Below, one piece after another: positions 8,900 through 39,338 of a stretch of DNA of 64,000 nt. Below the pieces are notes generated by a model. It saw nothing but the letters and a program-made list of their open reading frames with translations. It was not told the origin of the DNA and made no database searches. Origin of the DNA: an uncultured Gammaproteobacteria bacterium (GTDB lineage Bacteria > Patescibacteriota > Microgenomatia > Levybacterales > GWA1-39-11); the NCBI GenBank assembly GCA_964406795.1, contig CAYOTA010000001.1, forward strand, positions 77,081 through 141,080, written 5' to 3'. How positions within the stretch are numbered: position 1 is the stretch's first letter; each line of letters opens with the position of its first letter. Made by a program: the position numbers and the translations under genes.

Positions 8900-8942
8900 G
8901 AAAGTACCCAACAGTATTGACATTATATTTTTTTTACGTAAT

Positions 8943-8959
8943 AATTAACTTAGTTAATA
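8943..8959. promoter_or_regulatory. Putative MarR operator, copy 3 (AATTAACTTAGTTAATA), upstream of the fasciclin gene
   Basis: Reverse-orientation copy of the same palindrome. Confidence 0.45.
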
Positions 8960-9006
8960 ATCTAATTAATAAAATAACTATATGAACAAACTATGTTTGA
9001 AGGGAG

Positions 9007-9612: not shown

Positions 9613-9679
9613 ATTGGTGTTTAACACTGCGCCCGTTAAAATTTACGGACGCAGTAATTAAGCAAGGAGCATACAAATC

Positions 9680-11404: not shown

Positions 11405-11496
11405 ATAGGAGCATGGCATTTAGCCATATCGCGCTTTGCGTATCGTTAAAAAAGTATAACAATTTACAAAAACCGAATAATCGATTCTTACTTATC

Positions 11497-22947: not shown

Positions 22948-24234
22948 CTATTCATAGAACCAACTCATCGCAGGGTTATCGACTTCCATTATTTTTCCTT
23001 TTTGAATTTTGTATACGCCATCTTCCTTAACCATAATCCACGTTCCTTCGTAATAATGCATTATGGCTTCACTCTCTACCCAATTCTTAGTGGAGAACTT
23101 CACAAAGGCTGTATCTTTCGTATCCTCAAACTTTTCGGACTTAATAACATCAACATCCAAAATATCTTTAAATCTATTTGTCCATTCTTCGAAATTTGTC
23201 TTAAGCAAGTATTCCTGGCTTAAAAGATTAAATCCATCTCTCATTCTTCTGGCTTTGAGGTATGTATAGTACGCTCTAACTGCATCTTCTGGAGACTTTG
23301 ATGGATCAACCTCAATTTTGGTAATTCCCTGATCTGTAAAACTCGGAACCATTGTCTTTGCCTGGTCGGCAGAAATATAAAGAGATAATCCAGCTAAACT
23401 TAGCGTGTTAATACCTATGACATTTCCGCACTGGTCAGCAATAGGCCCACCGCTCATTCCTTCCACCAAGCTTATATTCGTTTGTAGATAAACAACTGGA
23501 CTTCTACTAGATTTTCGAAAATCAATAAAGTTACCCCTAACAACGGTTGCTTTACCGACTAAATCTGTTCCTAATGCATAACCAGTTGATATCAATGGTT
23601 CGTCTTCGCGGAGCGTTACTCTGTCTGGAAGTGGCAATACTTTATCAGGGAACTTTTTATCAGTGAAAAGAACGGCCAAGTCAGCATCTTTATTGCCCAA
23701 TATTTTGCTTGGTGTAACAAAACTACCATCAGGAAAAATAATTTTTGGACTTGGTTCATCGGCAATAACATGGAAGTTTGTAATCACTTGGTCGTCCGAA
23801 ATAAAAAATCCTGATCCTTCGGAGTATCCGCCCACAACCCTGACTACAGAATTTTGTAGACTTTCTTTAGCTCCAAAAGAGCATAGAAACTTACCGTACC
23901 ATCCGTATTGAGTACGCAAATAGTCGGCAATAACAAAAAGCGAAGCGATCATGTATACAACTACAGCGATAACAAATAAAGACTTCAAAAAGTTTTTCAA
24001 ACTCCTAAAGGGGAAAATAATTGAGTCAATAATTATTTTGATGAGTGCGACTACAAACTTGATCGAAAAAACGACCAAGTAATAAGAAGAGTAAGTAACG
24101 AGTTTTATAGGGAACAGGTAAAGAGGGAAAAGAAGTCGCTTAAAGTAAGCACGAAATCTCGAGAGAAGCTTAGAAAAGTTATCTTGGATACTCTTTGACC
24201 ATTTCTCAAATTGTTTTTCAAGAATATTGATCAT
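22948..24234 (-). CDS. Membrane-anchored trypsin-like (S1/HtrA-type) serine protease with a C-terminal NTF2-like domain
   Basis: Two N-terminal TMs; GSGFFISDDQVITNFHVI (His), DLAVL (Asp), GMSGGPI (Ser) catalytic triad motifs. Confidence 0.65.
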   Translation of the reverse strand: MINILEKQFEKWSKSIQDNFSKLLSRFRAYFKRLLFPLYLFPIKLVTYSSYYLVVFSIKFVVALIKIIIDSIIFPFRSLKNFLKSLFVIAVVVYMIASLFVIADYLRTQYGWYGKFLCSFGAKESLQNSVVRVVGGYSEGSGFFISDDQVITNFHVIADEPSPKIIFPDGSFVTPSKILGNKDADLAVLFTDKKFPDKVLPLPDRVTLREDEPLISTGYALGTDLVGKATVVRGNFIDFRKSSRSPVVYLQTNISLVEGMSGGPIADQCGNVIGINTLSLAGLSLYISADQAKTMVPSFTDQGITKIEVDPSKSPEDAVRAYYTYLKARRMRDGFNLLSQEYLLKTNFEEWTNRFKDILDVDVIKSEKFEDTKDTAFVKFSTKNWVESEAIMHYYEGTWIMVKEDGVYKIQKGKIMEVDNPAMSWFYE

Positions 24235-24237
24235 GGT

Positions 24238-24993
24238 TTATTTTTCAAATTGCCGGACTGCCTGGCGGTACTTGCAGAAATCACAGTCTTCGCCTGGATC
24301 AGGCATTTCATCTGCCTTGAGACATTTGACTGCATCCAAGATTGTTTGCTCAACCCAGTTAGTGTTACCTTCGTACGGAATCACCTTTATATCAAACTCA
24401 AGCTTTCCATCAAAAGCTGCTGGATCAGTATCACCATTACAATATACAAAGTAGCCTACAGGAGAGACCCTAAAGCCGTTTTGACGGAATAACCATTGAT
24501 ATATTTCCATCTGCCGTTTGTAGCCGATTTGCCAATCTGCATCAAGCGTTACCTCAGCATCCTTAGATGTGGCTTTGTAGTCCACAATGATGAATTCACC
24601 ATCTGGTTTTACCCACACATCGTCGACCCCACCCGTAATTACTACGTTTTCGTCGTCAATCTTGAAAGTTATACCGGCTCGTAGTGAATCTCTCCACTCA
24701 TCTATCTTTTCATGAGCCAATGGAACAGCATCGATACCATATGTTTTCATTAGCGGATGAGGAGTTTTATTGGCTCTGTGAGTATCAAATTCCTTCTTGA
24801 GAAGCTTATCTACAGCCGAGTTGAGAGAAAATGGATATCCAGGTGGCTGACCAACACCTAGGCGTCGATCGAGGTAGAAACAACGTGGACAATTTAAGAA
24901 AAGATCAATCTTTGAACGACTTAAGCGAAACAACTCTGACGAATTTGCGTCATATAGATTTCTTGTGCGATTTGGATTGTAGTATTTTGACAT
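24238..24993 (-). CDS. Cas4/RecB-like PD-(D/E)XK nuclease with a 4-Cys cluster
   Basis: N-terminal Cys (CPRCFY), core ITGGVDDVW...IIVDYK (D..D/E.K), C-terminal CDFCKY; stop/start abuts the helicase below. Confidence 0.6.
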   Translation of the reverse strand: MSKYYNPNRTRNLYDANSSELFRLSRSKIDLFLNCPRCFYLDRRLGVGQPPGYPFSLNSAVDKLLKKEFDTHRANKTPHPLMKTYGIDAVPLAHEKIDEWRDSLRAGITFKIDDENVVITGGVDDVWVKPDGEFIIVDYKATSKDAEVTLDADWQIGYKRQMEIYQWLFRQNGFRVSPVGYFVYCNGDTDPAAFDGKLEFDIKVIPYEGNTNWVEQTILDAVKCLKADEMPDPGEDCDFCKYRQAVRQFEK

Positions 24994-24994: not shown

Positions 24995-26983
24995 TCAGTT
25001 TGGTCTTCTGCTATTGTTTCTAGCTTGTTGCAATGATTCTAAGTATTGAATAAATTCAGATTTATCTCGTAATAGTTGTATTTGTCGATTGGACTTTTTG
25101 TATTTATAAAACTCAATATTTTCGCTAGGTAGCATATCCAAATAAGCATGCGGTCTCTGTGATCCGCCTGAACCTAAAGCAGTTATGAGATGTAGTGATT
25201 TTCTTGCTCTTGTTATAGCGACAAAAAAAGCATTTTTAGTTATCCATGACATATTTTGATTATCAAAACCAATAATCATTACATGATCTGCTGATAACCC
25301 TTTTGATCCAACAAGAGTTAATAACTCAACGGCACACATGTTCTTTACTTCTAATTCCTCAAGTTCAACAGATTCTTCTTCCTTATGTTCAGTTTGCAAA
25401 ACTTGATTCTCATCTATAGCTTGTTCAGTGAGATTGTTTCTTAATTCATCGGAATTAGTTATACCAATCTCAACACTTAACTTTTGAATCTTAACCTCGA
25501 TAGAATCTGTTGATTCGATAATTTCTTTTACTTTCTGACATTTGCTTAGAATTAACTGCACGGACTCGTGAGCTAATTCGAAAAACTGCTTACTAGAAGT
25601 AAGACATTCATTTATCAAAACACTAATATCAGTTGTAGCAGTACCTTCATAGTAGAAAACCTTACGAAAGGTGAAATTATTCTCAGGGTGCCTAGCAAGA
25701 GAGTAATAAGTCAATAGTTTGTAGTAATCTTCTGAAAATTTCTTAGGTTCTTCTTTATATTCAGCAACCATTTCAAATAAATCTTTATTTGCATTTGAAT
25801 TCGCATAAAAAGTTACTTGTCCGGCAGGAGTCAAAATAAGTAAAAACGGATCTTTGCTCTGTCCACTTATTAAATCATTCTTCCTTGTTGCTATTTCTTG
25901 TGCGTGGTCTTCAATGAATTTTTTAATATAGTCAACCGCTGTAGGAGAAGTGGCACATCCAATAATCTGCACTTTTGGACATTGAGTGTCTGTAGAGATT
26001 GGTAAATATACCTTCTCTATACATCCATCTTCTTGCGATTGTTTAATAAAGTGACTAGCGGTTTTTGTAATATGAAAGCTACTTCGGCCACAAAATGGAA
26101 GCATTGCCGATGTGAAGCTTGTATCTTGATATAGATTTCTTATCAATTCTGCTTTTCCTGACTTTAGTTTCTCATAAAGAACTTGATCATCATCTCCAAC
26201 TATCAAGACACCAGAATTGCCAATGGTAAGTTCATTTATGAAATTCTCCTCGGCAGTATTGAAGTCTTGATATTCATCAATAATATAAAATTGATGTTTT
26301 ATTAGTGATCGATTTTCCAATAGTGCTTTTGGTGCATGAAAAATTAAATCTGCGAAGCCTACGGCGTTATAGAATTTGGACAACTTGAAATAGTTATAAA
26401 TCACAATTTCCCACTCCTCTGAAGTGTTGAAGTTCGAATTATGGAGTTGTTCGTTAAATTTCTTAAATGAATATGTTGTCTTGTCTGGTTGATCAACAGT
26501 AAGTAACACATCCTCCCAGACTGCGTCTGTCCAAACATCACTGATAATTCTGAAATGCGGTTGAAATCTTATTTCTGGAGTTCCGTGATTTTGTTCTACT
26601 ATACTTCGAGCATATTTATGCAATGTATGAACTTCAACTTGCCCTTTTTGATCTTCAGTAAGACTTGTGTCATTTTGAATATCATTTTGTAAGTCAGCTA
26701 CAAGTTTACGAACAAAACTTAATGCTAAAATTCCTGCGGATGGATTTTGAGTTAGCCAGTAGTCGATTCGTTGTTTAAAAATTGTGCTTTTCCCCGTTCC
26801 CGGTCCTGATACGATTACAATCTTGACTGATGGATGGCCAGCAATTGCACTAGCATTACCGTTTCGATAATTGGTTCGTTCAATATCAGTTAATCTATCA
26901 AGATCACCACTTATTGTTTGTAATTCAGTGCTATTAAATGGTTCACCGTTGTCGTTGATTAAGTGTCTTATTACATTTGGCAT
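24995..26983 (-). CDS. UvrD/Rep-family SF1 DNA helicase
   Basis: GPGTGKST (I), IIDEYQDFN (II), IVGDDDQ (III), VAITRARKSLHLI (VI). Confidence 0.8.
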   Translation of the reverse strand: MPNVIRHLINDNGEPFNSTELQTISGDLDRLTDIERTNYRNGNASAIAGHPSVKIVIVSGPGTGKSTIFKQRIDYWLTQNPSAGILALSFVRKLVADLQNDIQNDTSLTEDQKGQVEVHTLHKYARSIVEQNHGTPEIRFQPHFRIISDVWTDAVWEDVLLTVDQPDKTTYSFKKFNEQLHNSNFNTSEEWEIVIYNYFKLSKFYNAVGFADLIFHAPKALLENRSLIKHQFYIIDEYQDFNTAEENFINELTIGNSGVLIVGDDDQVLYEKLKSGKAELIRNLYQDTSFTSAMLPFCGRSSFHITKTASHFIKQSQEDGCIEKVYLPISTDTQCPKVQIIGCATSPTAVDYIKKFIEDHAQEIATRKNDLISGQSKDPFLLILTPAGQVTFYANSNANKDLFEMVAEYKEEPKKFSEDYYKLLTYYSLARHPENNFTFRKVFYYEGTATTDISVLINECLTSSKQFFELAHESVQLILSKCQKVKEIIESTDSIEVKIQKLSVEIGITNSDELRNNLTEQAIDENQVLQTEHKEEESVELEELEVKNMCAVELLTLVGSKGLSADHVMIIGFDNQNMSWITKNAFFVAITRARKSLHLITALGSGGSQRPHAYLDMLPSENIEFYKYKKSNRQIQLLRDKSEFIQYLESLQQARNNSRRPN

Positions 26984-27050: not shown

Positions 27051-29729
27051 CTATTTAGAACTTAGTTGTCCAAAACTCATATTTGGTGAGATAGACGTAT
27101 GGGGCAAGATTACATATCTCCAAGGTTTTCCTCGATTAATAGTGTTAAATTTAGTCGCTGCTTCACAATACTTTTTACCTGCCTCAGCTTTTTCAAGCAC
27201 TTCGGCATCATCAATGTCTCGTTCTGCCTTTATTTCAACCAGATAAATAGCGTCCTTAGTTTCTACAACAAAATCCGGTTCATATCGTTTAGAGTTTCGC
27301 TTCCAATACATCAGAAACTGTGACATTGAAGGACGGAGCCAGCGCACAACCTCTCGATCATCTTCTAGAATGGTTGCAAAATCCTTTTCAGCTTTAGAAT
27401 CAAATTTATACAGATTATGACAAGCTTTCTTAAACCCGCCAAAAACTTTAGTAGAGATCATATTTGTAGGTGTGATCGTCTCCGTAAAGTGGTGTATTTT
27501 ATCAGCGGTATATTTGGAAAAATTATGTGGTTCGATACGAGTAAACGGATAGACTACTGGTTCTTCATACGCACCAGTTTCCAGAAAGAAGTGCTGTTGT
27601 AACTGGGCATAGATGAAGTTCCCAATTTCTCGCTTGTGATATAGCACTATATTCTCCAAGTCTTCTTCACTTCGGTTGTTACCTAATTTAACAACAGCTT
27701 GTTGAACTATTTTGTGTAGCAGTTCCGATTCACGATCATAATCAATTTCCGGATAATTCACGAGTTCATTCATAACAATATTGCTCGGGATATCACGCTC
27801 CATGCCACTTTCAGTGCTTTGTAATACCTCACTCAAATTAGTTCTTAGAGTTCGACGAATAATTTCTTCTGATACTGGTTGGTAGTTAAGTCCAGAAACA
27901 TCAAGTTCAAAATCATGAAAACCTGAACGCACCTCATTACTTTGCTGAACCAGAATTCGAGGAATGGGAATGGTCTTAGAAATAAGCTCTTCAACTACCG
28001 CCTCATACTCTTTTTCAGCGGCTGCAACTATCTGATCCTTGAACAGATTTTGTTGAGGGATGCTTTCAATATGCTCGACCATCTTTTTAATAGCAAGTTT
28101 TTGTACATCACTGCTCTTTAAGTCATCAATGTTTTTAATTTGACTTCCAAGCGAGCTAACTGCGTCTACGATTAATTGCTGGGCATCAAGGGAAATTCCA
28201 GCACTTTGTCTTTCGACTTCATCTTTCAACTCGGAGACTTGATCTCGCCTTTCATTTAGAGATGATTGAACAATTGAAGACGATGTAATAACTTCTTGAT
28301 TGGCGGGCAGTTCATTCGGATCAATTTCTATGATATTTTCTTTTCGAATTATTGAGTTTGGGTCGTTAGCCGCATCCACGATTGATTGGAAACGATCATG
28401 GGCAATTATGGTAAGCTTGTCTACTTTTTCAACACCAGTACGTGCCCCGTATGGCAATCGCAAACCTCGGCCAATAGTCTGTTCTGTTAGGATTTGAGAA
28501 TTTGCAGCGCGAAGAGGAATGATTGTATAGAGATTGGTAACATCCCAACCTTCTTTAAGCATGTTGACATGAATAACGATTTCAATTGAATTATCTGGTT
28601 TTTCTAAAGCAACTAATTTCTGTACATTTTCTTCTTTTTCCTCACCACGCTGGTTGGAATGAATCTCAATGACCTTGCCTTTATAACGGCCTTCAAAGAA
28701 TTGTTCGGATTCAATTGTTGTTCGAATCTCTTTGGCATGATCAGTGTCTTTGGCAACAACTAATACAAATGGTCGTACCAATGGTTTGTTCATATCCCTG
28801 GAGTAGATATCTAGAGCAACTTTGGTATCTTCGTGGATACGAATACCATCTTCGAGTTTGATAAGGTCGAGTTCCTTAGGGTCATTTCTGTATTGGTCAG
28901 GATTAAAGTTTCTGCGTGTTGCTATCGCAGGTTCTTTGACAAACCCGTCTTGCAATGCTTTGGCCAAAGGATAATCGTAGACTACATTTTTGAATTTAAG
29001 ACCAGTTGAATCAATTGGAGTGGCGGTTAATTCCAAACCTAAAATTGGCTTAAGTTCATTAATTGCCTTGAGTCCTGCATCAGCACGATAATGATGTGAC
29101 TCGTCCATAATCAAGACGAGATCAGGCAACTCTGCAAGATAGTTAAAGTAAGATTCTCCTAGATATTCGGACAGTCGTTTAATGCGGGGCTCACGTCCTC
29201 CACGAACTTCAGAATTTATCTTGGAAATATTAAAGATGTTGATACGAACAGTCTCACCCAGCATTTGCTGGTGCTGATTGTAGGTATCTCCAGTGATGAT
29301 ACGTGGGCCAAATACCGCAAATTCGGATATACCTTTAAAGACATACTTTGGATTCTGTGGATTAGATAAATCGTCTATTAATTTATTATAAATAGTTAGA
29401 TTGGGCGCCAACACAAAAAAATTCTTTATTCCTTTTGCTGAATAGAGGTAGGCAATAAATGCTCCCATCAAGCGGGTTTTGCCAACGCCTGTAGCTAAAG
29501 AAAAACAAACTGAAGGAAACTCACGCTCAAAATCAGAACACGTAGGATACAACGCACGAACTTTTTCTAAATCACTTTTAACGTCATCATCACTCTTCAA
29601 TTTCAAAATATCTGTTATTTTTTGCAAAATTTCTAAGCTATCCGCTTGTGGTTTACGTAGACTTAATCTATTTTTGATAGTTTGAGCTTTACTGTTCATC
29701 TTGTACCTCCTTAGATTCTTCCGCCTCAT
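27051..29729 (-). CDS. Type III restriction enzyme Res subunit (SF2 helicase + C-terminal PD-(D/E)XK endonuclease)
   Basis: LATGVGKT (I), LIMDESHH (II), QTIGRGLRL (VI), C-terminal EPDFVV...YLVEIK nuclease motif; overlaps the mod gene by 41 nt. Confidence 0.75.
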   Translation of the reverse strand: MRRKNLRRYKMNSKAQTIKNRLSLRKPQADSLEILQKITDILKLKSDDDVKSDLEKVRALYPTCSDFEREFPSVCFSLATGVGKTRLMGAFIAYLYSAKGIKNFFVLAPNLTIYNKLIDDLSNPQNPKYVFKGISEFAVFGPRIITGDTYNQHQQMLGETVRINIFNISKINSEVRGGREPRIKRLSEYLGESYFNYLAELPDLVLIMDESHHYRADAGLKAINELKPILGLELTATPIDSTGLKFKNVVYDYPLAKALQDGFVKEPAIATRRNFNPDQYRNDPKELDLIKLEDGIRIHEDTKVALDIYSRDMNKPLVRPFVLVVAKDTDHAKEIRTTIESEQFFEGRYKGKVIEIHSNQRGEEKEENVQKLVALEKPDNSIEIVIHVNMLKEGWDVTNLYTIIPLRAANSQILTEQTIGRGLRLPYGARTGVEKVDKLTIIAHDRFQSIVDAANDPNSIIRKENIIEIDPNELPANQEVITSSSIVQSSLNERRDQVSELKDEVERQSAGISLDAQQLIVDAVSSLGSQIKNIDDLKSSDVQKLAIKKMVEHIESIPQQNLFKDQIVAAAEKEYEAVVEELISKTIPIPRILVQQSNEVRSGFHDFELDVSGLNYQPVSEEIIRRTLRTNLSEVLQSTESGMERDIPSNIVMNELVNYPEIDYDRESELLHKIVQQAVVKLGNNRSEEDLENIVLYHKREIGNFIYAQLQQHFFLETGAYEEPVVYPFTRIEPHNFSKYTADKIHHFTETITPTNMISTKVFGGFKKACHNLYKFDSKAEKDFATILEDDREVVRWLRPSMSQFLMYWKRNSKRYEPDFVVETKDAIYLVEIKAERDIDDAEVLEKAEAGKKYCEAATKFNTINRGKPWRYVILPHTSISPNMSFGQLSSK

Positions 29730-31287
29730 TCCTAGTCGCTTTGATGATATTCAAATCGTAATTATCTTTACCAAATTCGCACTTCCCAAGAATCATCTGA
29801 GGAATTTTCTTAATAGTTATATTTGAAAAATAATTTTCGCTCTCTGGAGCAAACGATTTGGCGCAGATTAATAAACTTTCATTTTCGGTCATTTGTGCAT
29901 GAATAGCATCGAGCTGTTCTACTGTCACGAAGCCAGTTGTAACAAAAATATAGTCCGTTTCGGTAGATTTACCCTGCTTCCAATATGCTGCCTCGTCAGG
30001 AGAATATTTAAAACCTTCATGTTTACACATAGCTGCGGACAACATATTTGCATTATATTTCTCATCAATCACAAAGTTTCCAAAACTGTCCTTGCGCAAG
30101 AGGGAAGGAGCTAAATTATAAAACTTAAATCCACCTCCACCTTTCCAACCAAGAGCTTCTGATAATGGTAACCCATCCTTACCGTCAACCACCTTCTTCA
30201 GCCTAGGTAAGCAGTGTGTTGTCGCGTGTTCGCCCAGTTCGACCCCAATCCATTTACGACCCATTTTGTGAGCGACTGACGCGGTAGTACCTGATCCTAG
30301 GAAACTGTCGAGTACCCAGTCTCCAGGCTTTGAAGCTATATCAAATATTCTCTTTATGAGTCTTTCAGGTTTAGGTGTTGAAAAAGGATCATCAGCAAAT
30401 AACTTTTTAATCTCTTGTTTAGCCTCCTGATTGTCACCAACTTCAGTTCGAAACCAAATTGTAATAGGGACAAGACCATCCTGCACCTCCGTAAGAAAAC
30501 GCTTATAGCGAGGAACATTGTTACCATTACTGCCGAAGTATATTCGATTATCGTTAATCAACTCTTCAAATCTGATTTTAGAAAATCTCCAGCTTGTACC
30601 TGCTGGAGGCATTAAGACTCTGCCTGATGGTGTGGTCAAAGGGTAAATATCCTTAGGATTTGGTGTTTTGGCATGACAAGGCCCTGATGCCCAGACTCCT
30701 CTTGGGTCGTTATCAATATTTGTATATCCTTTAGAATCATCACCATTGCGAGGCAACAAATTTCTTTGCCAAAGTAATTTATTCTTTGCGTAACAGAGTA
30801 TAAAATCGTGATTGTCAGATAGCCATCTTGCATCATTACTTCTCGTGTGTTTCTTTTCCCAAATAATTGTAGCTACAAAATTATTTCTACCAAAAACTTC
30901 GTCGCATAATACTTTTAAATAATGAGACTCTGTATCATCTACAGAAATCCATAAACTGCCCTGATCTTTATCTAAAAGATTTTTTAATATTTCTAATCTT
31001 GGGCGTACTAAATTTAACCAAATCGAATGTTCAAGGTTGTCGTCATAGTGCGTAAATGCACTTCCAGTATTATAAGGAGGGTCAATATAAATACATTTTA
31101 TTTTGCCTGTAAAATCTTGTTCTAAAGCCTTTAACGCAAGAAGGTTGTCACCGTAAATAAGCATATTTTCGGAGTTGTGGTCGCCATAAGACTTTTCAGA
31201 ATCTTCAATCAAGATTCTCGGCTCAAGCTTGAGTTCTTCATCTTTGCCGATCCATGTTAATTCCAGTTTTTGTTTTTTATTTGTCAT
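29689..31287 (-). CDS. Type III Mod N6-adenine DNA methyltransferase
   Basis: IYIDPPYN (motif IV) preceding LDSFLGSGTT (motif I): beta-class order typical of Mod. Confidence 0.8.
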   Translation of the reverse strand: MTNKKQKLELTWIGKDEELKLEPRILIEDSEKSYGDHNSENMLIYGDNLLALKALEQDFTGKIKCIYIDPPYNTGSAFTHYDDNLEHSIWLNLVRPRLEILKNLLDKDQGSLWISVDDTESHYLKVLCDEVFGRNNFVATIIWEKKHTRSNDARWLSDNHDFILCYAKNKLLWQRNLLPRNGDDSKGYTNIDNDPRGVWASGPCHAKTPNPKDIYPLTTPSGRVLMPPAGTSWRFSKIRFEELINDNRIYFGSNGNNVPRYKRFLTEVQDGLVPITIWFRTEVGDNQEAKQEIKKLFADDPFSTPKPERLIKRIFDIASKPGDWVLDSFLGSGTTASVAHKMGRKWIGVELGEHATTHCLPRLKKVVDGKDGLPLSEALGWKGGGGFKFYNLAPSLLRKDSFGNFVIDEKYNANMLSAAMCKHEGFKYSPDEAAYWKQGKSTETDYIFVTTGFVTVEQLDAIHAQMTENESLLICAKSFAPESENYFSNITIKKIPQMILGKCEFGKDNYDLNIIKATRNEAEESKEVQDEQ

Positions 31288-31291
31288 AGTT

Positions 31292-34200
31292 TTAGATTAT
31301 CTTCCATCGAATGGTAAATAATGGCTCAAGTTTTGAGTGCTGAGCCAATCGGGCTTCAACTGATTCAAGCAACTTTTCCTTCTTTAATTCTACCTCGTCT
31401 TGGGTCTCAAACAAACGCCTTCTCATCTCATTTCGTTTCTTCTCCCAATCTTTAATTTCTCTTTGGGCTTTCAATTTTTCATCTAAATTAATGATCTTTT
31501 TAGCATTTGTTTTTGCCGTTTTAATGTCAATATCAAACTTCCTTAAATCTAGCTCTATCGCTTTCTTTACATCTTCTGCCCAATTATCTAGTTTATCTAC
31601 CTCGTGATCAAAGAAACTCCCGTTACGCTCGGCGATAACGGTGGAAACAGTCTTAACATACGTATTTTCAAGTTCATCAAGTTTGGTTTTTTTATCACTT
31701 GGAACATTCAATGGAGTAGTGGACTCTGCTGATAACTGAAATATTTTCTTGATAATTTCAGGTTCTATTACATCACCAGAGTCGGTAATTGCAGAGAGAA
31801 TAATATTATCTTCTGCTTCAAATGATTCCACGGTAAAGTTTGAGATCTTCAATACTCCACTTTTTCCTACAAACCGTTTTAGTACAGATATTATGGTTTG
31901 ATTGTCGGAATAATTAAAGACAATTTCTGTTTCTTCAGCCTGTTTTGATTTAATGTCAGACAAAATACGCTGGGCAAGGGAATGTCCTGGGCGGTAAATG
32001 TGAGCATCTTCAATATTCTTACCTATTTTATAAGGGCCAGAATCAATTTCTTCGTTTGGAAATGGGTTCTTTTTTAACATGAATGAATATTCTTGTTCAG
32101 AAAATTCAGCATTATCGCCAAGATAAAATCTTGTGGTATCCCAAAGCCAACGGTTATACATGTCAAGATACATCGTAGTTTCTTTAAGATTTAATTTAAG
32201 TTTTTCGTGTACCTCAGCGTCAAAGTTCTCCAAAAGTGTTTGTCTAGTCTCGGAAAGATTATTTTTGATACTCACATCCATTTCCTCCTGAAGTTTATCG
32301 AACGCAGTATTAATCTCGTCTGTGGTACGACAATCTTGATAGATTGCTGCAATACGCTTTTCAAAGTCCACTCCAGACTCGATATTACCCAAAACTTCGT
32401 CACTAGCTCCGAAAACACCTTTAAACAATTTGAACTTTTGATCTAAAAGGTCATATACGCGACTATCAGCTGCGTTTTTTCGATTCACAAAATTAATTAC
32501 AACCACATCATGCTTCTGTCCGTATCGATGACATCTGCCAATGCGCTGTTCGATACGCTGTGGATTCCACGGCAAATCGTAGTTAATAACTAAGGAACAA
32601 AACTGTAAGTTAACACCCTCCGCTGCTGCCTCGGTGGCGATCATAATATCTGCTTCATCATGGAAGTAGTCGATAAGGGCAGAACGCATGTCCGCAGTTT
32701 TTGACCCAGTAAGTTTATCGGAGTCTTTATTTTTTTCAACCCAATTTTTATAAATTTCTTTTGATTTAGGATCGTTGTTCGAACCGTTAAAGAGGACGAT
32801 TTTATCCTGATAGCCATTATCCGGCAAAAGAGTCTCTGATAAATATTTTTGTGTAATCGTGGATTCAGTAAAAATAATCGCTTTTTGTTTTGCGCCAAGC
32901 TCTTTCGTCATCTCAAAACCTTTTTTAAGTGCTATCAGAAGCGCGTCCCCTTTAGAGTTAGTGAAAATAGCTTTTGCGAGATCTCTAAATCTTTCCAAAT
33001 CGATCTTTTCCTGTTCCATTAGTGGAATATCGTCCTGGGTGTATACCTTAGGTTTTTTACCTTTTTCTGTATCACCATCGTCACCTTCTTCATCATCAAT
33101 CCATTCATCAGATATTTCATCCAATCCCTCAAAATTTTGGGCAATCTCGGTTGTATCAAACTCAACAGGTACAGTTGCCAATGTCTTCTTCGTTTCATCA
33201 ATCAGTAATCCTAGTTTTGCTACGAGATTATTAAGGGTACTTGCTATGGCAAAGGAAGACGAAGCAAGTAACTTTCTTAAAATAAGTGTCATGAGCTGTC
33301 GCTGGCTCGAAGGAAGGGCAAACAATGTCGGCCGTTGTAAATATTCAGACATACTGTCATACAGCTCAATCTCTTGTTTCGTAGGGATGTAGTCCTGAGT
33401 AATTGGTTTACGTTCAGTGTATTTAATATATTCCAATACCTGACGTCTTAATGTCCGAATACAGACCGACTTTAGACGACTTCGTAAATCAGTAAAAAGA
33501 AGTTGTTTTGGATCGACCATTTGCTCATCTTCTGCCAGTCCATTTTCTCTTATAACAATACCTTTACCCGTGTCACCCTCTTTTGCCCACTGGATACCAC
33601 TTATATGTGTAGGAATTTCCTGCTCTCTAGGTGCATGCGAGTAATTTGCTTTGAAACTTTTTAAATCACCAAATACGTGATCATCGATAATGCTTACGAG
33701 ACCATATAGTTCAAGTAATGAATTTTGTAACGGTGTTGCTGTGAGCAGAATCTTGGGCACATCAGACAAAGAGCTTTTTATTTCTCGAGCTATCTTGTTA
33801 CTTGTCTTGTAAACATTACGTAGTCGATGCGCTTCATCGATTACTGCTAAATCCCATTTAGTTTGTTTTACGTATGGAGCTTTTCCTCTAGCAAAATGAT
33901 ATGAGCAAATAATTATCTTATCTTCCTGATCAAAAGGGTTGAGATTTCCGTCTTTAATAGATTGATTAAATGATTTGGCTTCCAATATCACCGAGGGCAA
34001 AAAGAACTTTTCTTGTAATTCCATGTTCCATTGCTTGCGAAGCGCAGCGGGAACAATCAAGAGAATCTTTCTTTTTCGCTCTGCCCATTTTTGAGATAAA
34101 ACAAGACCAGCCTCGATTGTCTTTCCTAGTCCAACTTCATCGGCCAAGATTGCACCCATCGATAAAGGGGATTTAAATGCAAATAATGCGGCTTCAATTT

Positions 34201-34327
34201 GGTGTGGATTAAGGTCAACCTGCGCATTAGAAAGAGTGGAAGATAATTTTTCAAGGCTATCTGAAGAACATCGCTTAGTTAACTCGTAAGCAAAGTATTT
34301 TGCATGATATGGCGTAATTTTTAACAT
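31292..34327 (-). CDS. SNF2-family helicase (1011 aa) co-operonic with Type III mod-res
   Basis: ADEVGLGKT, DEAHRLRN, HelicC block NYDLPWNPQRIEQRIGRCHRYGQ; 5-nt gap to mod. Confidence 0.85.
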   Translation of the reverse strand: MLKITPYHAKYFAYELTKRCSSDSLEKLSSTLSNAQVDLNPHQIEAALFAFKSPLSMGAILADEVGLGKTIEAGLVLSQKWAERKRKILLIVPAALRKQWNMELQEKFFLPSVILEAKSFNQSIKDGNLNPFDQEDKIIICSYHFARGKAPYVKQTKWDLAVIDEAHRLRNVYKTSNKIAREIKSSLSDVPKILLTATPLQNSLLELYGLVSIIDDHVFGDLKSFKANYSHAPREQEIPTHISGIQWAKEGDTGKGIVIRENGLAEDEQMVDPKQLLFTDLRSRLKSVCIRTLRRQVLEYIKYTERKPITQDYIPTKQEIELYDSMSEYLQRPTLFALPSSQRQLMTLILRKLLASSSFAIASTLNNLVAKLGLLIDETKKTLATVPVEFDTTEIAQNFEGLDEISDEWIDDEEGDDGDTEKGKKPKVYTQDDIPLMEQEKIDLERFRDLAKAIFTNSKGDALLIALKKGFEMTKELGAKQKAIIFTESTITQKYLSETLLPDNGYQDKIVLFNGSNNDPKSKEIYKNWVEKNKDSDKLTGSKTADMRSALIDYFHDEADIMIATEAAAEGVNLQFCSLVINYDLPWNPQRIEQRIGRCHRYGQKHDVVVINFVNRKNAADSRVYDLLDQKFKLFKGVFGASDEVLGNIESGVDFEKRIAAIYQDCRTTDEINTAFDKLQEEMDVSIKNNLSETRQTLLENFDAEVHEKLKLNLKETTMYLDMYNRWLWDTTRFYLGDNAEFSEQEYSFMLKKNPFPNEEIDSGPYKIGKNIEDAHIYRPGHSLAQRILSDIKSKQAEETEIVFNYSDNQTIISVLKRFVGKSGVLKISNFTVESFEAEDNIILSAITDSGDVIEPEIIKKIFQLSAESTTPLNVPSDKKTKLDELENTYVKTVSTVIAERNGSFFDHEVDKLDNWAEDVKKAIELDLRKFDIDIKTAKTNAKKIINLDEKLKAQREIKDWEKKRNEMRRRLFETQDEVELKKEKLLESVEARLAQHSKLEPLFTIRWKII

Positions 34328-34328
34328 A

Positions 34329-34499
34329 TTAATTCTTTTTACTTATGAATTTTTCTAAATCGGCTTTTCTATATCGCCTAGTTCGTTTTTCTCCAATTCG
34401 AATAGCTATGAGAATGCCCTTTTTGTCCCATATACGCAAAGTATTTACATGAACCTTTAAGATTTGTGCCGCTTCTTTGAGAGTTAATAGTTCTTCCAT
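34329..34499 (-). CDS. Small excisionase-family (AlpA/MerR-like) HTH protein, 56 aa. Not in the ORF track (below the size cut-off).
   Basis: Manual translation MEELLTLKEAAQILKVHVNTLRIWDKKGILIAIRIGEKRTRRYRKADLEKFISKKN; paralog of 39591..39773; stop 2 nt before the SNF2 start. Confidence 0.55.
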   Translation of the reverse strand: MEELLTLKEAAQILKVHVNTLRIWDKKGILIAIRIGEKRTRRYRKADLEKFISKKN

Positions 34500-34618
34500 A
34501 TTGATTTACCTACCAATTGATAACAATATTATATAGAGTTAGCTAGGCTTTTTCAACCATTTTTATACGAAAAAACACCTCAAAAAGGCCGAAGTCTATG
34601 TAGTATAGGAGGAATTCC

Positions 34619-34831
34619 TTAAACGAAGTCACTCATGGAAGATTTGAGGGCTTTTGCTACTTTTTGGAGTACTTCAAGAGAAGGAGCATGTCTACCTTGT
34701 TCAATATATCCCATATAGGCTCGACTGATGCCTGCTCTTTCAGCTGCTTCCTCCTGGGTAATCCCAATTTGTTTCCTTCGCTTCTGGATTTTCTTCCCTA
34801 TCGCTTTTGGAAGCGTTGCGTTTTTCCTCAT
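34619..34831 (-). CDS. XRE-family HTH transcriptional regulator
   Basis: IGITQEEAAERAGISRAYMGYIEQGRHAPSLEVLQKVAKAL. Confidence 0.75.
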   Translation of the reverse strand: MRKNATLPKAIGKKIQKRRKQIGITQEEAAERAGISRAYMGYIEQGRHAPSLEVLQKVAKALKSSMSDFV

Positions 34832-34947: not shown

Positions 34948-35358
34948 GTGAACAAAATGGGATTATTTGGAAATAAACAACAAACTGGAGAAAAACCGTT
35001 GTATGAAACAAGTTATGCCGGGTTTTGGATTAAAGTTTTTCCTAATAGGATTGAGTTTAAAGCCGGAGTTGGTTCACAAAGTATTCCAATAAACCAGATA
35101 GCGAGTGTTCAACTACCTATGATGGGCATATGGAAAATCACTTTAGAAACAACTGGAGGAAAGAAGTACGCCGTACCAACTTCCAAAAAGAAAGAAGTTC
35201 AAAAGGCTATTTATGAGGCACAATCACAATTTTCTGGGAACGGAAGAGCTACTGAAGATGTGACTGGCGAAATTGTAAAGCTAAACGATTTAAAGGAAAA
35301 GGGAATTTTATCTCAAGAAGAATTTGATAAAAAGAAAAAACAACTTCTTGGAATTTAA
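34948..35358 (+). CDS. Bacterial PH-like domain + C-terminal SHOCT domain protein
   Basis: C-terminal IVKLNDLKEKGILSQEEFDKKKKQLL SHOCT motif. Confidence 0.5.
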   Translation: MNKMGLFGNKQQTGEKPLYETSYAGFWIKVFPNRIEFKAGVGSQSIPINQIASVQLPMMGIWKITLETTGGKKYAVPTSKKKEVQKAIYEAQSQFSGNGRATEDVTGEIVKLNDLKEKGILSQEEFDKKKKQLLGI

Positions 35359-35359: not shown

Positions 35360-36907
35360 TTAAAACTTCATATCCAGTGTGATTGGTTCAATATCAAATC
35401 CTAAATCATTCATGTGTTGCAAAGACCAAGTTAATCCAGGGTGAGGATCAGGTTCTGGTGTAGATACTTCGCCCGGTTTACGCCTGCTTGATGGACGATC
35501 TGAATCTATGACTTTTGACATAAGTAATGTAAAAGCATCAGCCAAATCATCATATTTTTCCACACCAAAATTTACTAATTGACCTATTAATACTTCTGCA
35601 CCTGTTCTTGGAAAGAATACTTTCCCTTGTTGGATAAGGGGAGAAACCAAGGATAGTCTTGACCTTTTATCCATATTTGGAATTCTCACTTCTTCAGCAA
35701 GTACGTGTTCTACTGTCAGTTGTTGCGCTGCGGCACTTTGGTAACCGACACTTTCTATGTAGGCCACAGGATACGGTCTATAACCTACTTTAAGTTGCTC
35801 CGTTAAGGTTTTTATTGCCTGAATTGTTTGTGGAAAATCTAATTTCTTGTTTAAGATATATGGCAAAATGTAGACTTGAAGATTGTCGCCGTAACCCACT
35901 ACATACGCTGGAACTAAGGCCGTGAAGTTTGCCCATTCCAAAAGTGAAATAGCTAAGTCAACGCCAATCGCTACAAGCCTGGCTGGATAACGATCAGTAC
36001 TAGGAAGAATATCGTAATATTTTATCCAAGAGCCTTTTACAATTCGGTCTTCGTCAGCAATAATTTTTAACAAGAACTCCCTGTACCAAGCTGATTCATC
36101 AGAAATCTCTTTCCTTTTAGCTTCAATGTGTGCCATCGTTGGAAATTTGCCAGGCCAAGCAATATTTCCGTTATCGTCTAACAATGGAAATTCTTTATAA
36201 ATACCGCCTGCCCCTCCTGATTGGATATTTTGCTTAATTCGCATCATCAGCGAATCCTCATGCAAGAGGTTACCTACTGTAATTATTCTGGTGCCACTAT
36301 CTCCAATTGGCTTTATCTCACCAGAAAACCAGTTCCAGAGATTATCTCTGCTTTCTCTGGTCTTAACTGATTCCAGATCTTCAACATCGTCGATGATAAT
36401 AAGATCAGGTCGGTATTGTCGATGTCTGAGTCCTCTGATTCTTTCACTTTGAGATATGGCTGAAATTCTGGCGTCGTGGTGCGGGATTACGAGTGAATTG
36501 GATCGCCATTCGTCAGCTACTTCTGAAAATGGTCCAAAATCTCGTATCAATAACTCATTTGATGTAAGTTCTTGTTTTATGTTTGTAAGGATTTGTTTTG
36601 CCAATCCCTGGGTCAGGCTCACGAGCAGGGTATATTTCTTGCTTGGCTTACCAACCATTGCCCAGATAGGTAGTGCAAGAGTTGCTATTGTTGATTTAGC
36701 CGAACCACGAAAAGCAGTAATGGAAATCTTTTCTAATTCTTCGTTTTGTATGAGATTAAAAATTTCCTTTTGAAAATCAGCAGTCGGACAAGTAATGTAG
36801 TGAGGAAAATAAGTGACAAAAAACCAATAAAAGTTCTCCTGCGTTAATGCTCTTCGAAAATCAGGATTATCCTGAATTTGTTTTATGATTTGTTGTTGAT
36901 CATTCAT
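35360..36907 (-). CDS. Phage terminase large subunit-like protein (ATPase + nuclease)
   Basis: Walker A-like AFRGSAKST, Walker B LIIIDDVED, nuclease motif IGVDLA; 515 aa. Confidence 0.65.
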   Translation of the reverse strand: MNDQQQIIKQIQDNPDFRRALTQENFYWFFVTYFPHYITCPTADFQKEIFNLIQNEELEKISITAFRGSAKSTIATLALPIWAMVGKPSKKYTLLVSLTQGLAKQILTNIKQELTSNELLIRDFGPFSEVADEWRSNSLVIPHHDARISAISQSERIRGLRHRQYRPDLIIIDDVEDLESVKTRESRDNLWNWFSGEIKPIGDSGTRIITVGNLLHEDSLMMRIKQNIQSGGAGGIYKEFPLLDDNGNIAWPGKFPTMAHIEAKRKEISDESAWYREFLLKIIADEDRIVKGSWIKYYDILPSTDRYPARLVAIGVDLAISLLEWANFTALVPAYVVGYGDNLQVYILPYILNKKLDFPQTIQAIKTLTEQLKVGYRPYPVAYIESVGYQSAAAQQLTVEHVLAEEVRIPNMDKRSRLSLVSPLIQQGKVFFPRTGAEVLIGQLVNFGVEKYDDLADAFTLLMSKVIDSDRPSSRRKPGEVSTPEPDPHPGLTWSLQHMNDLGFDIEPITLDMKF

Positions 36908-37334
36908 GACTATTTTCTTTGGACGGAATAAGTGCCGCCATTTCTATTGCTTTATTGAGTAATTCTTTCTGTTCATCTGTCAGGTTAATTTCTTTGTTAT
37001 AGCCAGCGGTAGTCACCTCAACTCTGTTGCGATAGGAATCATGATGTGTCTTAAGCCAGAAAATTATCGAGGTCATGTTTTTATCCTTAATGGCACTAAT
37101 TAGCTGGCTCTCGGCTAGATCATTCACAAGCAAGTTGCCTTCTTGCAAGGCTTCATCTGCCTGTTTTGAAAACTCTTTATCTTCAGCTCTCCATCGATAA
37201 TATGTCGAACGTCCTACATTGGTTTTCTCACAGGCCACCTGAACTATGGGAGTTTTCTTTAGTTGCTCTACCAGTAGATCTTGTTCAACTTTTATACGAT
37301 CTCTAACTGTAATTTGATTATCTTTGTTGTTCAT
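36900..37334 (-). CDS. Phage terminase small subunit-like HTH protein
   Basis: HTH ACEKTNVGRSTYYRWR; ...IIFWLKTHHDSYR typical of TerS; overlaps terL by 8 nt. Confidence 0.5.
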   Translation of the reverse strand: MNNKDNQITVRDRIKVEQDLLVEQLKKTPIVQVACEKTNVGRSTYYRWRAEDKEFSKQADEALQEGNLLVNDLAESQLISAIKDKNMTSIIFWLKTHHDSYRNRVEVTTAGYNKEINLTDEQKELLNKAIEMAALIPSKENSHE

Positions 37335-38074
37335 AGTTTTTTAGCATTTTTACCTGTAACTTTTTCAAAACGATCCATGACGACCTGACAGTATTCTGGA
37401 TCAAGCTCGATTCCCAAACATCTACGCCTAGTTTGCTCACAGGCTATTAACGTAGATCCCGAACCTAGAAAAGGGTCATATACCCAGTCGCCGATTTTTG
37501 AACTATTTAGAATAAGATTGCGAAGTAACCCGACTGGCTTCATCGTTGGGTGCAACGGACTCTTATTTGGTTTAGGGTAAAACAAAACGCTTTTATCCTG
37601 GGATTTCTGAAACCTATGAGTGCCGAACCACCCATAGGCTATGAGCTCATGCATGGGGAGATAGTTAAGTCTTCCGAGTACCGCATGGTTTTTGATCCAG
37701 ATAAGAAGTTGGGCAAACTTGAATCCCTGTTCAAGCAGTCCTTCTCGCATAGAAAAGAGCATTTTGTCGGAATTAAACAAATAATAGCTATTTTTTTCAG
37801 CAAGATGTAGTTTAACTAATTTCAACCATCCACTTGTAAATTCTTTATATTCCTCATCAGTTTGCAAATGGTCATTTAGGATAGTTTTCCTTTTCCCAAC
37901 TTGGTTAAATCCAATTTTGTTTTCAATAAGCGCCACAGCGTACGGCATATCGGTGAGGATCAAAGAAACCTTCCGATCACTAAGAATCTTTTTAACAATT
38001 TCTGGATCCAATGCATCGCCACAAGCGAGATAGTGTGAACCTAGTTCAAAGATGTCATTCTTTTGGATTAACAT
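37331..38074 (-). CDS. DNA N6/N4 methyltransferase
   Basis: ILTDMPY (motif IV), VYDPFLGSGSTLIACE (motif I). Confidence 0.75.
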   Translation of the reverse strand: MLIQKNDIFELGSHYLACGDALDPEIVKKILSDRKVSLILTDMPYAVALIENKIGFNQVGKRKTILNDHLQTDEEYKEFTSGWLKLVKLHLAEKNSYYLFNSDKMLFSMREGLLEQGFKFAQLLIWIKNHAVLGRLNYLPMHELIAYGWFGTHRFQKSQDKSVLFYPKPNKSPLHPTMKPVGLLRNLILNSSKIGDWVYDPFLGSGSTLIACEQTRRRCLGIELDPEYCQVVMDRFEKVTGKNAKKL

Positions 38075-39338
38075 ATTTTGCCTCCTTTCCAGTCAATTGT
38101 TGATACCGAGCGACAATAACATCACAAAAGATCGGATCAATTTCGCAGAGGAACACCCTGCGTTTCAACTGCTCGGCGGCTACAAGTTGACTTCCTGAAC
38201 CTCCAAAGAGGTCAAGAATAATATCTCCTGGCTTGGTACAACGACGGAATGCTTTCTCATATAAAGTAGGGGGCTTTTGTGTAGGATGTTCGTAGTCCTG
38301 TCCATTTACACGCTTCACGAGCCAGATATTAAATAAGTCCATGATGTCATCGGGAAGTCGATTACCTGTTCCAATCTCTTTATTGAGGACTTCGCTGATA
38401 TTGTGAACAGAAGCTGATAGGTAAGGACTGCCGATAGTTCCGTAGACGCAAGGCTCGAAAACCTTATTAAATGCAATTTGGGGAGTCATGTTGGAATTAT
38501 TCTTGATCCAAAGACAAACTCGTTTGTTATTAATTCCTAATTCTGAATACAAACTTTGTAGCATCCCAATGTATGTTTCATCACACCAACAAAAGATGTG
38601 ACAATCGGGGTAAATAAATTGCAAGCCGTTTTGAAGAACAGTTTTTAGAAATTCTCGGTACTCACTGTCAGATTTTTTGTCAGTAGCTCTGCCTCCATAT
38701 TTTCCTTTTGTGCTCACGCCCTTGTTGTAACTAAGTCCGATGTTATAAATCGGATCATAATTAAGCATATGGATTTTATGGTCATCAACTAACTCCTTAA
38801 CCACTTCAGAACTGGTACTATCCCCGCAATACAATCTGTGTTGCCCTAGCAAAATTAGATCACCCAGTTTTGTTCTTGGATTTCTTATCTTTGTCGCCTC
38901 TACCTCAGCATCAAAATCATCATCTTCAACACCAAGCGCATCGTCAAAAATATGGGTGAAATCAAGATCGTCAAAACCAGATTCCAAAAGCAGTTCCATG
39001 TCAAAGCTTTTTAAAAGTTCGTAATCCCAATCGCCAGATACGCGATTCAAAGTCAAATTCAATTTCTTCTCTCTTTCTACATCTTCGATGTCGATAAAAT
39101 TTACAGGAACCGTTTCGTATCCTAAGTCCTTGGCAATTTTTAATCTTAGATGACCTGCGATTACGGTTCCGTAGCGAGATTTATTGCTATTAACTAGGAT
39201 TGGAATAACAAACCCGTTTTCCTTAATACTTTTCGTCGCATCATGTATAGTCTTTTCATACCAAACACGAGGATTGTAACCAGCAGGGTTTAAATCGTTG
39301 ATAGGAACTTCAACTGTTTGAAGAGATATTTGTTTCAT
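38055..39338 (-). CDS. ParB-like nuclease domain fused to a DNA methyltransferase (phage-type)
   Basis: N-terminal ParB/Srx fold (VPINDLNPAGYNPR...IAGHLRL); C-terminal ILDLFGGSGSQLVAAE motif I. Confidence 0.75.
   Translation of the reverse strand: MKQISLQTVEVPINDLNPAGYNPRVWYEKTIHDATKSIKENGFVIPILVNSNKSRYGTVIAGHLRLKIAKDLGYETVPVNFIDIEDVEREKKLNLTLNRVSGDWDYELLKSFDMELLLESGFDDLDFTHIFDDALGVEDDDFDAEVEATKIRNPRTKLGDLILLGQHRLYCGDSTSSEVVKELVDDHKIHMLNYDPIYNIGLSYNKGVSTKGKYGGRATDKKSDSEYREFLKTVLQNGLQFIYPDCHIFCWCDETYIGMLQSLYSELGINNKRVCLWIKNNSNMTPQIAFNKVFEPCVYGTIGSPYLSASVHNISEVLNKEIGTGNRLPDDIMDLFNIWLVKRVNGQDYEHPTQKPPTLYEKAFRRCTKPGDIILDLFGGSGSQLVAAEQLKRRVFLCEIDPIFCDVIVARYQQLTGKEAKYVNPKE

Follow-up and report, generated by a model that had tools for sequence, protein, structure and literature searches.

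The stretch of DNA analysed here (64,000 nt, positions 77,081 to 141,080 of contig CAYOTA010000001.1, GenBank assembly GCA_964406795.1; the whole of it is referred to below as the window) very probably carries a functional-looking three-gene Type III restriction-modification (R-M) system, in which the gene for a SNF2-family ATPase stands 5' of the genes for the modification (Mod) and restriction (Res) subunits. The system is led by a gene for a small helix-turn-helix (HTH) protein, is followed by a sporadic tail of further genes and is the cargo of an island that is bounded by recombinase genes and bears terminase genes as well as Avs4. A sequence-only reading of the window had seen the HTH, SNF2, mod and res genes as a four-gene operon and as an unclassified hybrid of an R-M system with a remodeller. 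Our findings sustain the genes, their domains and their linkage, but reduce the conserved unit to three genes and assign the locus to a class that has been published.

The four minus-strand open reading frames (ORFs) were confirmed at the coordinates first given for them (Table 1), and so were their spacings, from ORF coordinates and direct reading of the sequence: 1 nt separates the HTH stop codon (TAA) from the SNF2 ATG, 4 nt lie between SNF2 stop and mod start, and mod and res overlap by 41 nt, all on the same strand. Their domain identities (HTH, SNF2, Mod, Res) were upheld, too, by profile searches with Pfam, NCBIfam and PADLOC. As to the proposed operon, the four genes are present and packed, but the block does not end with them; rather, it runs on past Res, co-directional on the minus strand, into genes for a UvrD-like helicase, a Cas4-like nuclease and a protease. 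Here the spacers measure 67 nt (Res to UvrD), 1 nt (UvrD stop to nuclease start) and 3 nt (nuclease stop to protease start), and no terminator-like hairpin was found in the 67-nt spacer. At the other end, a promoter-like site lies ~28 nt 5' of the HTH start codon, inside the 119-nt gap preceding the HTH gene. This site, a consensus match only, has the top score in a 13.5-kb scan, and the total of promoter-like sites in the scanned region is no higher than chance. Simple-sequence tracts that would speak for phase variation were not found at the locus.

Table 1. The gene block with the three-gene Type III system, its promoter-like site and other features of the island (window positions).
Feature	Position	Strand	Basis
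HTH_17 (excisionase/MerR-like) small protein, 56 aa	34329..34499	minus	Pfam, TIGR01764, PADLOC mad1
RapA/DrmD-type SNF2 ATPase, 1011 aa	31292..34327	minus	SNF2-rel_dom + Helicase_C
Type III Mod, beta-class DNA amino-methyltransferase, 532 aa	29689..31287	minus	N6_N4_Mtase, PADLOC MTase_III
Type III Res, superfamily 2 (SF2) helicase-like ATPase + C-terminal PD-(D/E)XK nuclease, 892 aa	27051..29729	minus	ResIII, PADLOC REase_III
UvrD/GajB-like superfamily 1 (SF1) helicase, 662 aa, sporadic 3' accessory	24995..26983	minus	UvrD-helicase
Cas4-like PD-(D/E)XK nuclease, 251 aa, recurrent accessory 3' of Res	24238..24993	minus	PDDEXK_1
Trypsin-like serine protease, 428 aa, final gene of block	22948..24234	minus	Trypsin_2
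Promoter-like site TTGAAA-17 nt-TATAAT, 11/12 matches	34528..34556	minus	consensus match
Large serine recombinases (three)	20632-21969, 44510-45817, 46193-47521		
terL	35360-36907		phrog_38, 265 bits (terS/terL)
terS	36900-37334		
Methylases (two, one fused to ParB domain)	37331-38074, 38055-39338		
Avs4 (AVAST type 4) STAND NTPase, 1578 aa	39777-44513	plus	PADLOC Avs4 end to end, 1979 bits

Judged by its sequence, the Mod-Res pair is a Type III system, with the Mod motif order, the Res ATPase and nuclease motifs and a mod gene directly 5' of res. Mod matches Pfam N6_N4_Mtase (PF01555, E=2e-46) and PADLOC MTase_III (642 bits), and among solved structures the Mod in 6k0w (E=6e-52) and EcoP15I Mod (E=1e-33) come closest to it. 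Its DPPY motif (residues 69-72) stands ahead of FLGSG (329-333), as is usual in Type III Mods with their beta-class order, and the central target recognition domain (about residues 170-305) differs between loci. Res combines Pfam ResIII and Helicase_C with a C-terminal TnsA-like_N domain of PD-(D/E)XK type (PADLOC REase_III, 615 bits) and aligns, including the nuclease motif, with EcoP15I Res, albeit distantly (E=1e-4). Invariant in an alignment of 11 sequences, which cover both Res classes (see below) and include a copy from a Salmonella plasmid, are the Walker A motif ATGxGKT (79-85; GVGKT at 81), DESH (209-212), motif VI (417-424; GRGLR at 420) and the nuclease residues PD818...E832xK834. 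Since, moreover, residues 1-892 align with full-length homologues at 82-89% identity, Res is no pseudogene, a condition that had been named beforehand as one under which the proposal would fall.

The ATPase that makes up the third gene of the system is a RapA/DrmD/BrxHII-type SNF2 protein without Tudor domains. Pfam detects SNF2-rel_dom and Helicase_C in it and shows no nuclease domain. Its top family matches are models for DrmD of the DISARM defence system (PADLOC PDLC02619, 687 bits; NCBIfam DrmD_b, NF038318, 693 bits), which bears out the likeness to DrmD proposed earlier; BrxHII, HmaA (a secondary match, 182 bits), DpdE and RapA are the next-best families. Both curated DrmD cut-offs are missed (693 vs 950 bits for NF038318, 255 vs 610 bits for NF038317), and by these scores the protein is related to DrmD, yet not a DrmD equivalog. 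Motifs DEVGLGKT, DEAH, TATPLQN and QRIGRCHRYGQ are invariant in 16 homologues (44-83% identity) from several phyla and plasmids.

By sequence as well as by fold, the nearest solved structure is RapA, and matches over the whole protein were obtained for RapA only (~1050 aligned columns vs ~620-760 for most eukaryotic remodellers), the best of them being an N-terminally truncated RapA. The AlphaFold2 (AF2) model has low global confidence (predicted local distance difference test, pLDDT, 64; predicted template modelling score, pTM, 0.34; TM-scores ~0.17), so that only its local C-terminal fold and the rank and extent of the RapA matches are usable. Residues 730-1011 are modelled confidently (pLDDT 72-90) as a beta-sheet with two very long helices (877-944, 948-994) inserted ahead of the last strand, and this segment agrees with the description of the alpha+beta domain at the C-terminal end of RapA and BrxHII (PMC12839542). 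Accordingly, what had been put down as an unusual C-terminal extension of ~350 aa is, from profile and fold matches, the usual RapA/DrmD-type C-terminal module. At the other end of the protein, the helicase core begins at ~residue 18-40, which leaves no room for an N-terminal Tudor domain.

Whether SNF2 belongs to mod and res was the point on which the sequence-only reading had staked its proposal, with non-synteny in homologous loci as the refuting outcome. This outcome was not borne out in either of two reciprocal scans. The first, anchored on SNF2, took a single genome for each species and yielded 48 loci, which come from Patescibacteria, Gammaproteobacteria, Rickettsiales, Ignavibacteria, Syntrophia-type Deltaproteobacteria, Omnitrophota, Bacteroides and Cytobacillus. 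A full-length match together with enough downstream DNA made 32 of these loci informative, and 31/32 have, on the strand of SNF2 and 3' of it, a PF01555 methylase and a ResIII-type helicase. A nuclease domain is part of the helicase itself or, in L040, a separate HNH nuclease follows it, and Res clusters with that of the window in 27 of the 31. The sole exception (L038) is the most distant of the 32, at 43% identity, and within the SNF2 clade of at least 47% identity methylase and helicase follow in 31/31 informative loci, SNF2 being always upstream and co-directional, usually with a SNF2-Mod gap of 4-20 nt. The second scan searched metagenome contigs with the Res alignment, and in 50 loci the contig reached 5.5 kb or more upstream of Res; a SNF2 homologue lies upstream of Mod in 40/50 (about 80%), and mod precedes res in most of the loci. 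The other ten comprise one divergent SNF2, two decayed loci (L114, L128) and seven clean two-gene Mod-Res loci with, for example, IleRS or Gabija-like genes upstream.

Further copies of the arrangement, with SNF2 homologues of 42-52% identity, sit on Salmonella IncFIB, Klebsiella IncF and Rhizobium conjugative plasmids, and among complete E. coli genomes one SNF2-Mod-Res lineage occurs in 30/5426 and a related SNF2 gene in 255/5426. Carriage by phages amounts to one partial match among 50,697 phage records. The pairwise distances of the three proteins, among which SNF2 is the most conserved, are correlated over 49 loci (r=0.50 for SNF2-Res and r=0.65 for Mod-Res; Mantel p=0.001). In hosts that range from Patescibacteria to E. 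coli, this SNF2 clade is paired with no fewer than four Mod/Res lineages that are not orthologous: a compact Mod with a Res of class A; a compact Mod with a class B Res, which shares about 36% identity with class A; a 634-680 aa Mod together with a ~1000-aa Res that carries PF19778; and a ~1000-aa Mod together with a 1050-1126 aa helicase. Interspersed among the SNF2-linked loci are the seven without SNF2, whose nearest Res relatives of known state are SNF2-linked (62-84% identity). Because these seven do not form a separate clade, SNF2 has been lost or gained repeatedly and thus is a strongly preferred but dispensable partner of Mod-Res.

The junctions between the genes also take up other genes, and the linkage persists in spite of them. 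The SNF2-Mod junction is an insertion hot spot for defence-type genes such as are commonly embedded in R-M operons (L009, L010, L021, L032, L034, L049, L133); we noted RhuM and Bro-N there, AbiV-HEPN accompanied by an SMC-like ATPase, Schlafen/AlbA_2 by HATPase_c_4 and Abi by AIPR, as well as DUF3644 and IS256. The Mod-Res junction holds Fic, YhcG or DUF262 genes in some loci.

The three-gene architecture is already known, and the window locus is a further member of the class typified by Eco86II (E. coli NCTC86) and BspHIV (Acinetobacter sp. H), since Murray et al. (2021, PLoS One 16:e0253267; PMC8259958) report ATPase-mod-res and the NCTC86 SNF2 protein is 43% identical to that of the window. 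The hybrid is hence not unclassified, as had been thought. These authors describe a conserved extra helicase-like ATPase 5' of mod, together with Mod and Res, in >500 genomes, which has SF2 motifs, lacks a nuclease motif and is unrelated to Res (PMC8259958). Mod alone gave full site methylation for Eco86II and BspHIV and did not need the ATPase; partially purified Eco86II, in which ATPase peptides were undetectable, cut ~25 bp 3' of the site; and the role of the ATPase was left open (PMC8259958). For NCTC86 only one putative Type III system is reported, and its ATPase gene lies directly 5' of mod (PMC8259958). On the NCTC86EC chromosome we find a SNF2-related protein of 963 aa, a gap of 20 nt, a methyltransferase of 1040 aa and a DEAD/DEAH helicase of 1126 aa, and this locus (L135) is probably Eco86II. 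It was found by sensitive blastn, whereas neither the lineage of the Salmonella plasmid nor a second one from E. coli gave a megablast match to NCTC86. Residues 1-1011 of the window SNF2 align end to end with 1-963 of the NCTC86 protein (WP_000580534.1); Mod and the NCTC86 methylase share 28% identity in the catalytic core only, and Res and the NCTC86 helicase have motif-level similarity only.

Thus the window shares with Eco86II and BspHIV the order and strand of ATPase, mod and res, an ATPase that has no nuclease motif and is not homologous to Res, a beta-class Mod with DPPY and FxGxG, and a Res with Walker A, DExH and PD-ExK motifs. It differs in its compact Mod and Res, which come from other lineages than the 1040/1126 aa proteins of NCTC86, and in its HTH leader and UvrD/Cas4-like/protease tail. 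PMC8259958 did not name the ATPase as SNF2/RapA/DrmD-type, an identification that comes from the present analysis. Neither a named SNF2-Type III system (literature searched by DISARM, DrmD, COG and PADLOC terms) nor a follow-up to Murray et al. was found, and Eco86II is named in no other paper searched.

Unlike these three genes, the HTH leader is not part of the core. The protein of the window matches Pfam HTH_17 (E=4.5e-12), TIGR01764 ('excise') and PADLOC mad1 (E=1e-13), but a recognisable HTH adjoins the SNF2 start in 15-16/76 loci only (about 20%), and these belong to two unrelated HTH families. HTH_17-type leaders recur in 7 other loci, including the Salmonella, E. coli and Rhizobium copies; an XRE-type HTH occupies the leader position in 8 loci, including the Klebsiella copy; and the remaining small ORFs 5' of SNF2 are mutually unrelated singletons. 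We therefore discard the HTH as a core component, and with a facultative leader the conserved unit has three genes rather than the four first proposed. The HTH protein is probably a facultative, C-protein-like transcriptional controller of the operon, and probably would time expression on entry to a new host, as C-proteins of other R-M systems do. One gene 5' of it lies an XRE-type HTH (70 aa; 34619-34831, minus), and beyond this a divergent SHOCT-domain protein (34948-35358, plus). As XRE-type HTHs lead other loci of this kind, the window carries both controller types in tandem. In E. coli CFSAN004176 (L133, 9001-9201) and 29 other E. coli genomes, the Prokaryotic Genome Annotation Pipeline (PGAP) of NCBI labels the HTH 5' of SNF2 'mads1 / MAD1'. 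No MADS core genes adjoin it there, and the label probably gives too specific a name to a generic regulator; mad1 itself is a widespread accessory regulator, deletion of which hardly affects MADS (MADS preprint).

Since the motifs of Mod and Res are intact, the established Type III mechanism may be extended to the window. As shown for relatives, a Mod dimer would recognise a short asymmetric site and methylate one of its strands, a Mod2Res complex would bind unmethylated sites on incoming DNA and, upon ATP hydrolysis by Res, enter a sliding state, and the PD-ExK nuclease would cut beside a site upon the encounter of complexes that come from inversely oriented sites. SNF2 would be an active translocase on double-stranded DNA that stands outside the core cutting and methylating enzyme, because it is dispensable for methylation by Eco86II and BspHIV, absent from the cleaving Eco86II preparation and lost repeatedly. 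Despite this repeated loss it is strongly co-inherited with Mod-Res. By analogy with RapA, which acts on RNA polymerase, we tentatively envisage an in vivo helper that clears protein roadblocks from DNA, or loads the enzyme, for communication between sliding complexes on invader DNA that is covered with protein, a role that is possible but on balance doubtful. The main alternative would be that SNF2 and Mod form a second, cleavage-independent layer of surveillance, as has been proposed for DrmD with DrmMI or for BrxHII with PglXI.

Several points weigh against the reading of the locus as a working three-gene Type III system with this division of labour. Recognition site, modified base (N6-methyladenine or N4-methylcytosine) and restriction activity at the window locus are all inferred; Res is only distantly similar to its EcoP15I counterpart; and the AF2 model of SNF2, being globally poor, gives no usable domain arrangement and does not bear on a degenerate REase-like fold of the kind described for RapA and BrxHII. 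Roadblock clearing by SNF2 is conjectural, and the missing ATPase peptides in partially purified Eco86II are still compatible with a transient or in vivo interaction. Moreover, the equation of the NCTC86 locus with Eco86II comes from statements in PMC8259958 and not from coordinates given there, and Mod and Res of the window are not orthologous to those of Eco86II. With only the SNF2 protein shared, carrying Eco86II biochemistry over to the window is an extrapolation.

Set against the classical two-gene systems EcoP15I and EcoPI, the window has the same overlapping mod-res operon, beta-class Mod and SF2 ATPase with C-terminal PD-ExK in Res, and differs in its extra SNF2 gene, its HTH leader, the distance of its Res and the phase-variation repeats, which were not found. 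A closer look at DISARM is called for by the SNF2 protein. DISARM is defined by DrmA (a helicase with DUF1998), DrmB (DUF1998) and DrmC (phospholipase D-like, PLD), to which class 1 adds DrmD and the PF13659 methylase DrmMI. It seems improbable to us that the locus is a variant or hybrid of DISARM class 1, in which a DrmD-like protein and the methylase would mark self, Res would replace DrmA/B/C and the blocking of unmethylated invader DNA, unlike that by a classical restriction enzyme, would not strictly scale with the number of sites. Admittedly, its SNF2 protein scores best with DrmD models and lies directly 5' of an amino-methyltransferase with a helicase-containing effector downstream, as in DISARM class 1, and a RapA-like SNF2 together with a methylase and a helicase/nuclease effector is common to DISARM class 1, ARMADA, type 3 BREX and BR/Hma. 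Also, the GajB-like UvrD after Res mirrors ArmD of ARMADA II, and one related locus (L084) joins a DUF1156-type methylase and a divergent SNF2 to this Res family. In line with the earlier observation that equivalents of DrmA/B/C are absent, however, 30 window proteins, including every large ORF of the island, gave no DrmA, DrmB or DrmC domains or PADLOC matches. The methylase is of PF01555 with Type III Mod architecture rather than a PF13659 DrmMI, SNF2 stays under the equivalog cut-off, close Mod-Res relatives exist as two-gene systems without SNF2, and Eco86II, with the ATPase undetected in the preparation, cuts at a distance from its site in classical Type III style. DISARM membership is therefore rejected. 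Of the hybrid of R-M and remodeller proposed at the outset, what stands is the linkage of SNF2 to mod-res; a hybrid with DISARM, given the methylase family and the DrmD cut-off, does not. L084 itself (464-11679) strings together a 1090-aa DUF1156-type methylase, a divergent 936-aa SNF2, a Type III Mod fragment, a 408-aa ORF and an intact Res, and may stand midway between arrangements of the DISARM-like and the Type III-linked kind.

Other defence systems were considered and rejected by their defining components. ARMADA II consists of ArmA (RapA-like SNF2), ArmB (PglX-like methyltransferase), ArmC (YprA helicase-nuclease) and ArmD (GajB-like UvrD helicase; PMC12458937), and the window resembles it in having SNF2, methylase, SF2 helicase-nuclease and UvrD/GajB-like helicase co-directional on a mobile, satellite-like island. 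As with ArmD, the UvrD family ends methylase-containing operons. The window Mod, however, is not PglX-like, its Res is not YprA/DUF1998, UvrD is sporadic and an N-terminal RelE-like domain was not detected by Pfam, so that there are counterparts like ArmA and ArmD only and none of ArmB or ArmC. BR/Hma systems combine a DUF499 AAA+ ATPase, an N6-methyltransferase and a Swi2/Snf2 helicase (PMC12839542). Pfam and PADLOC find no DUF499 or BrxC-like protein in the block, which rules out membership, nor does the window have PglZ or other BREX genes; in addition, its SNF2 has no room for the N-terminal Tudor domain, and its methylase is beta-class, unlike BrxHII and BR/Hma systems. As for MADS, the mandatory set of MAD6, MAD7 and MAD8 (MADS preprint) is not present, and besides the accessory regulator mad1 the window gave only a marginal mad8 P-loop match (E=1e-4); MADS membership is rejected as well.

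It is quite unlikely that two separable systems merely travel together, with SNF2 as a stand-alone defence or anti-plasmid factor that sits beside the R-M system and does not interact with Mod or Res. Such a scenario could draw on the repeated loss of SNF2 from Mod-Res loci that persist, on active Eco86II preparations in which the SNF2-type ATPase went undetected, on R-M operons being known insertion hot spots (with defence genes seen between SNF2 and Mod here) and on HmaA, an SNF2 protein that defends alone. HmaA, however, needs its NOV_C nuclease domain to do so, and no nuclease or effector domain was detected in the SNF2 of the window. More importantly, methylase and helicase follow SNF2 without exception at identities of at least 47%, even where Mod and Res are non-orthologous, and the distance matrices of the three proteins correlate. 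Chance adjacency in one genome, or decay of the locus, is very improbable indeed and is refuted by the synteny across phyla and collections; all motifs are intact and all proteins full length, and beyond the few related loci that have decayed nothing speaks for it.

Returning to the three-gene Type III system, the trio downstream of it probably consists of co-transcribed accessories or backup effectors, a view we hold with moderate confidence. The UvrD-like helicase (Pfam UvrD-helicase, E=1e-26; PADLOC matches to GajB and RTasHel) is of a widespread family of ~655 aa, and a 69% identical homologue occupies the same place after Mod-Res on another contig. Members of this family are found at the 3' end of methylase operons (L136-L141) such as Mod-Res-UvrD-DUF2779, HTH-MTase-GmrSD-UvrD (MTase, methyltransferase; here EcoRI-like) and HTH-(PLD-SNF2)-MmeI-like MTase-UvrD. 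The helicase was not found in the other 128 SNF2- and Res-anchored loci scanned, an absence that rules it out as a core component; it is a sporadic accessory. The Cas4-like nuclease (PDDEXK_1, E=5e-15; Cas4 models match as well) has homologues of 52-87% identity 3' of Res in seven loci (L001, L004, L005, L009, L018, L022, L037) and is preceded by UvrD in the window, by a reverse transcriptase in L009 and L022, by T5orf172 in L037 and by nothing in L004 and L005. Homologues of the protease (Trypsin_2, E=3e-19; a domain resembling the PADLOC RT-Protease and LmuA models) come directly after the nuclease in L004 and L005 and a few genes 3' of Res in L023. Nuclease and protease may form a small defence module of their own or act as a backup effector.

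The system lies within a region of roughly 27.6 kb (~19.9-47.5 kb) that is flanked by host-type genes, namely Lon, a DsbD-like protein and a DEAD-box helicase on the left and an FGGY kinase, a multicopper oxidase and complex I subunits on the right. Besides recombinase, terminase, methylase and Avs4 genes (Table 1), no capsid, portal or tail genes were found in this island. The set of recombinase, terL, terS and ParB-methylase recurs beside the SNF2 system in L007, L017 and L039 and beside UvrD in L136, which suggests that the island is one of a family of phage-satellite-like elements with defence cargo. The outermost serine recombinase gene is adjoined by the FGGY-kinase ORF (47589-49638, minus), which has a weak C-terminal domain match only and shares sequence with an overlapping ORF of 296 aa (48748-49638). 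The FGGY-kinase gene, or a position next to it, may be where the island integrated.

By itself the locus is one more ordinary case of a class already in the literature, and its value is comparative. What is new is the SNF2/RapA/DrmD identity of the ATPase, its several Mod/Res lineages, the repeated loss of SNF2, the optional HTH and the downstream trio, and classical Type III restriction is thereby tied to the theme of SNF2 plus methylase that runs through DISARM-1, ARMADA, BREX-3 and BR/Hma. One might speculate, though we regard it as rather unlikely, that a RapA-like SNF2 with an adjacent methylase is an ancient, portable unit that marks self and surveys DNA and to which interchangeable helicase-nuclease effectors have been coupled: DrmABC in DISARM-1, ArmC in ARMADA, the components of BREX-3 and BR, and Type III Res here. 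If so, SNF2 would have the same job in all of them, for instance the sensing or remodelling of invader DNA that is covered with protein or being replicated, or a RapA-like coupling to RNA polymerase, and the Type III version, with its well understood effector and native E. coli examples, would be the minimal and most tractable model for DrmD, ArmA and BrxHII. As 30 to 255 of the complete E. coli genomes carry so simple a system, the role of the SNF2 helicase is open to experiment.

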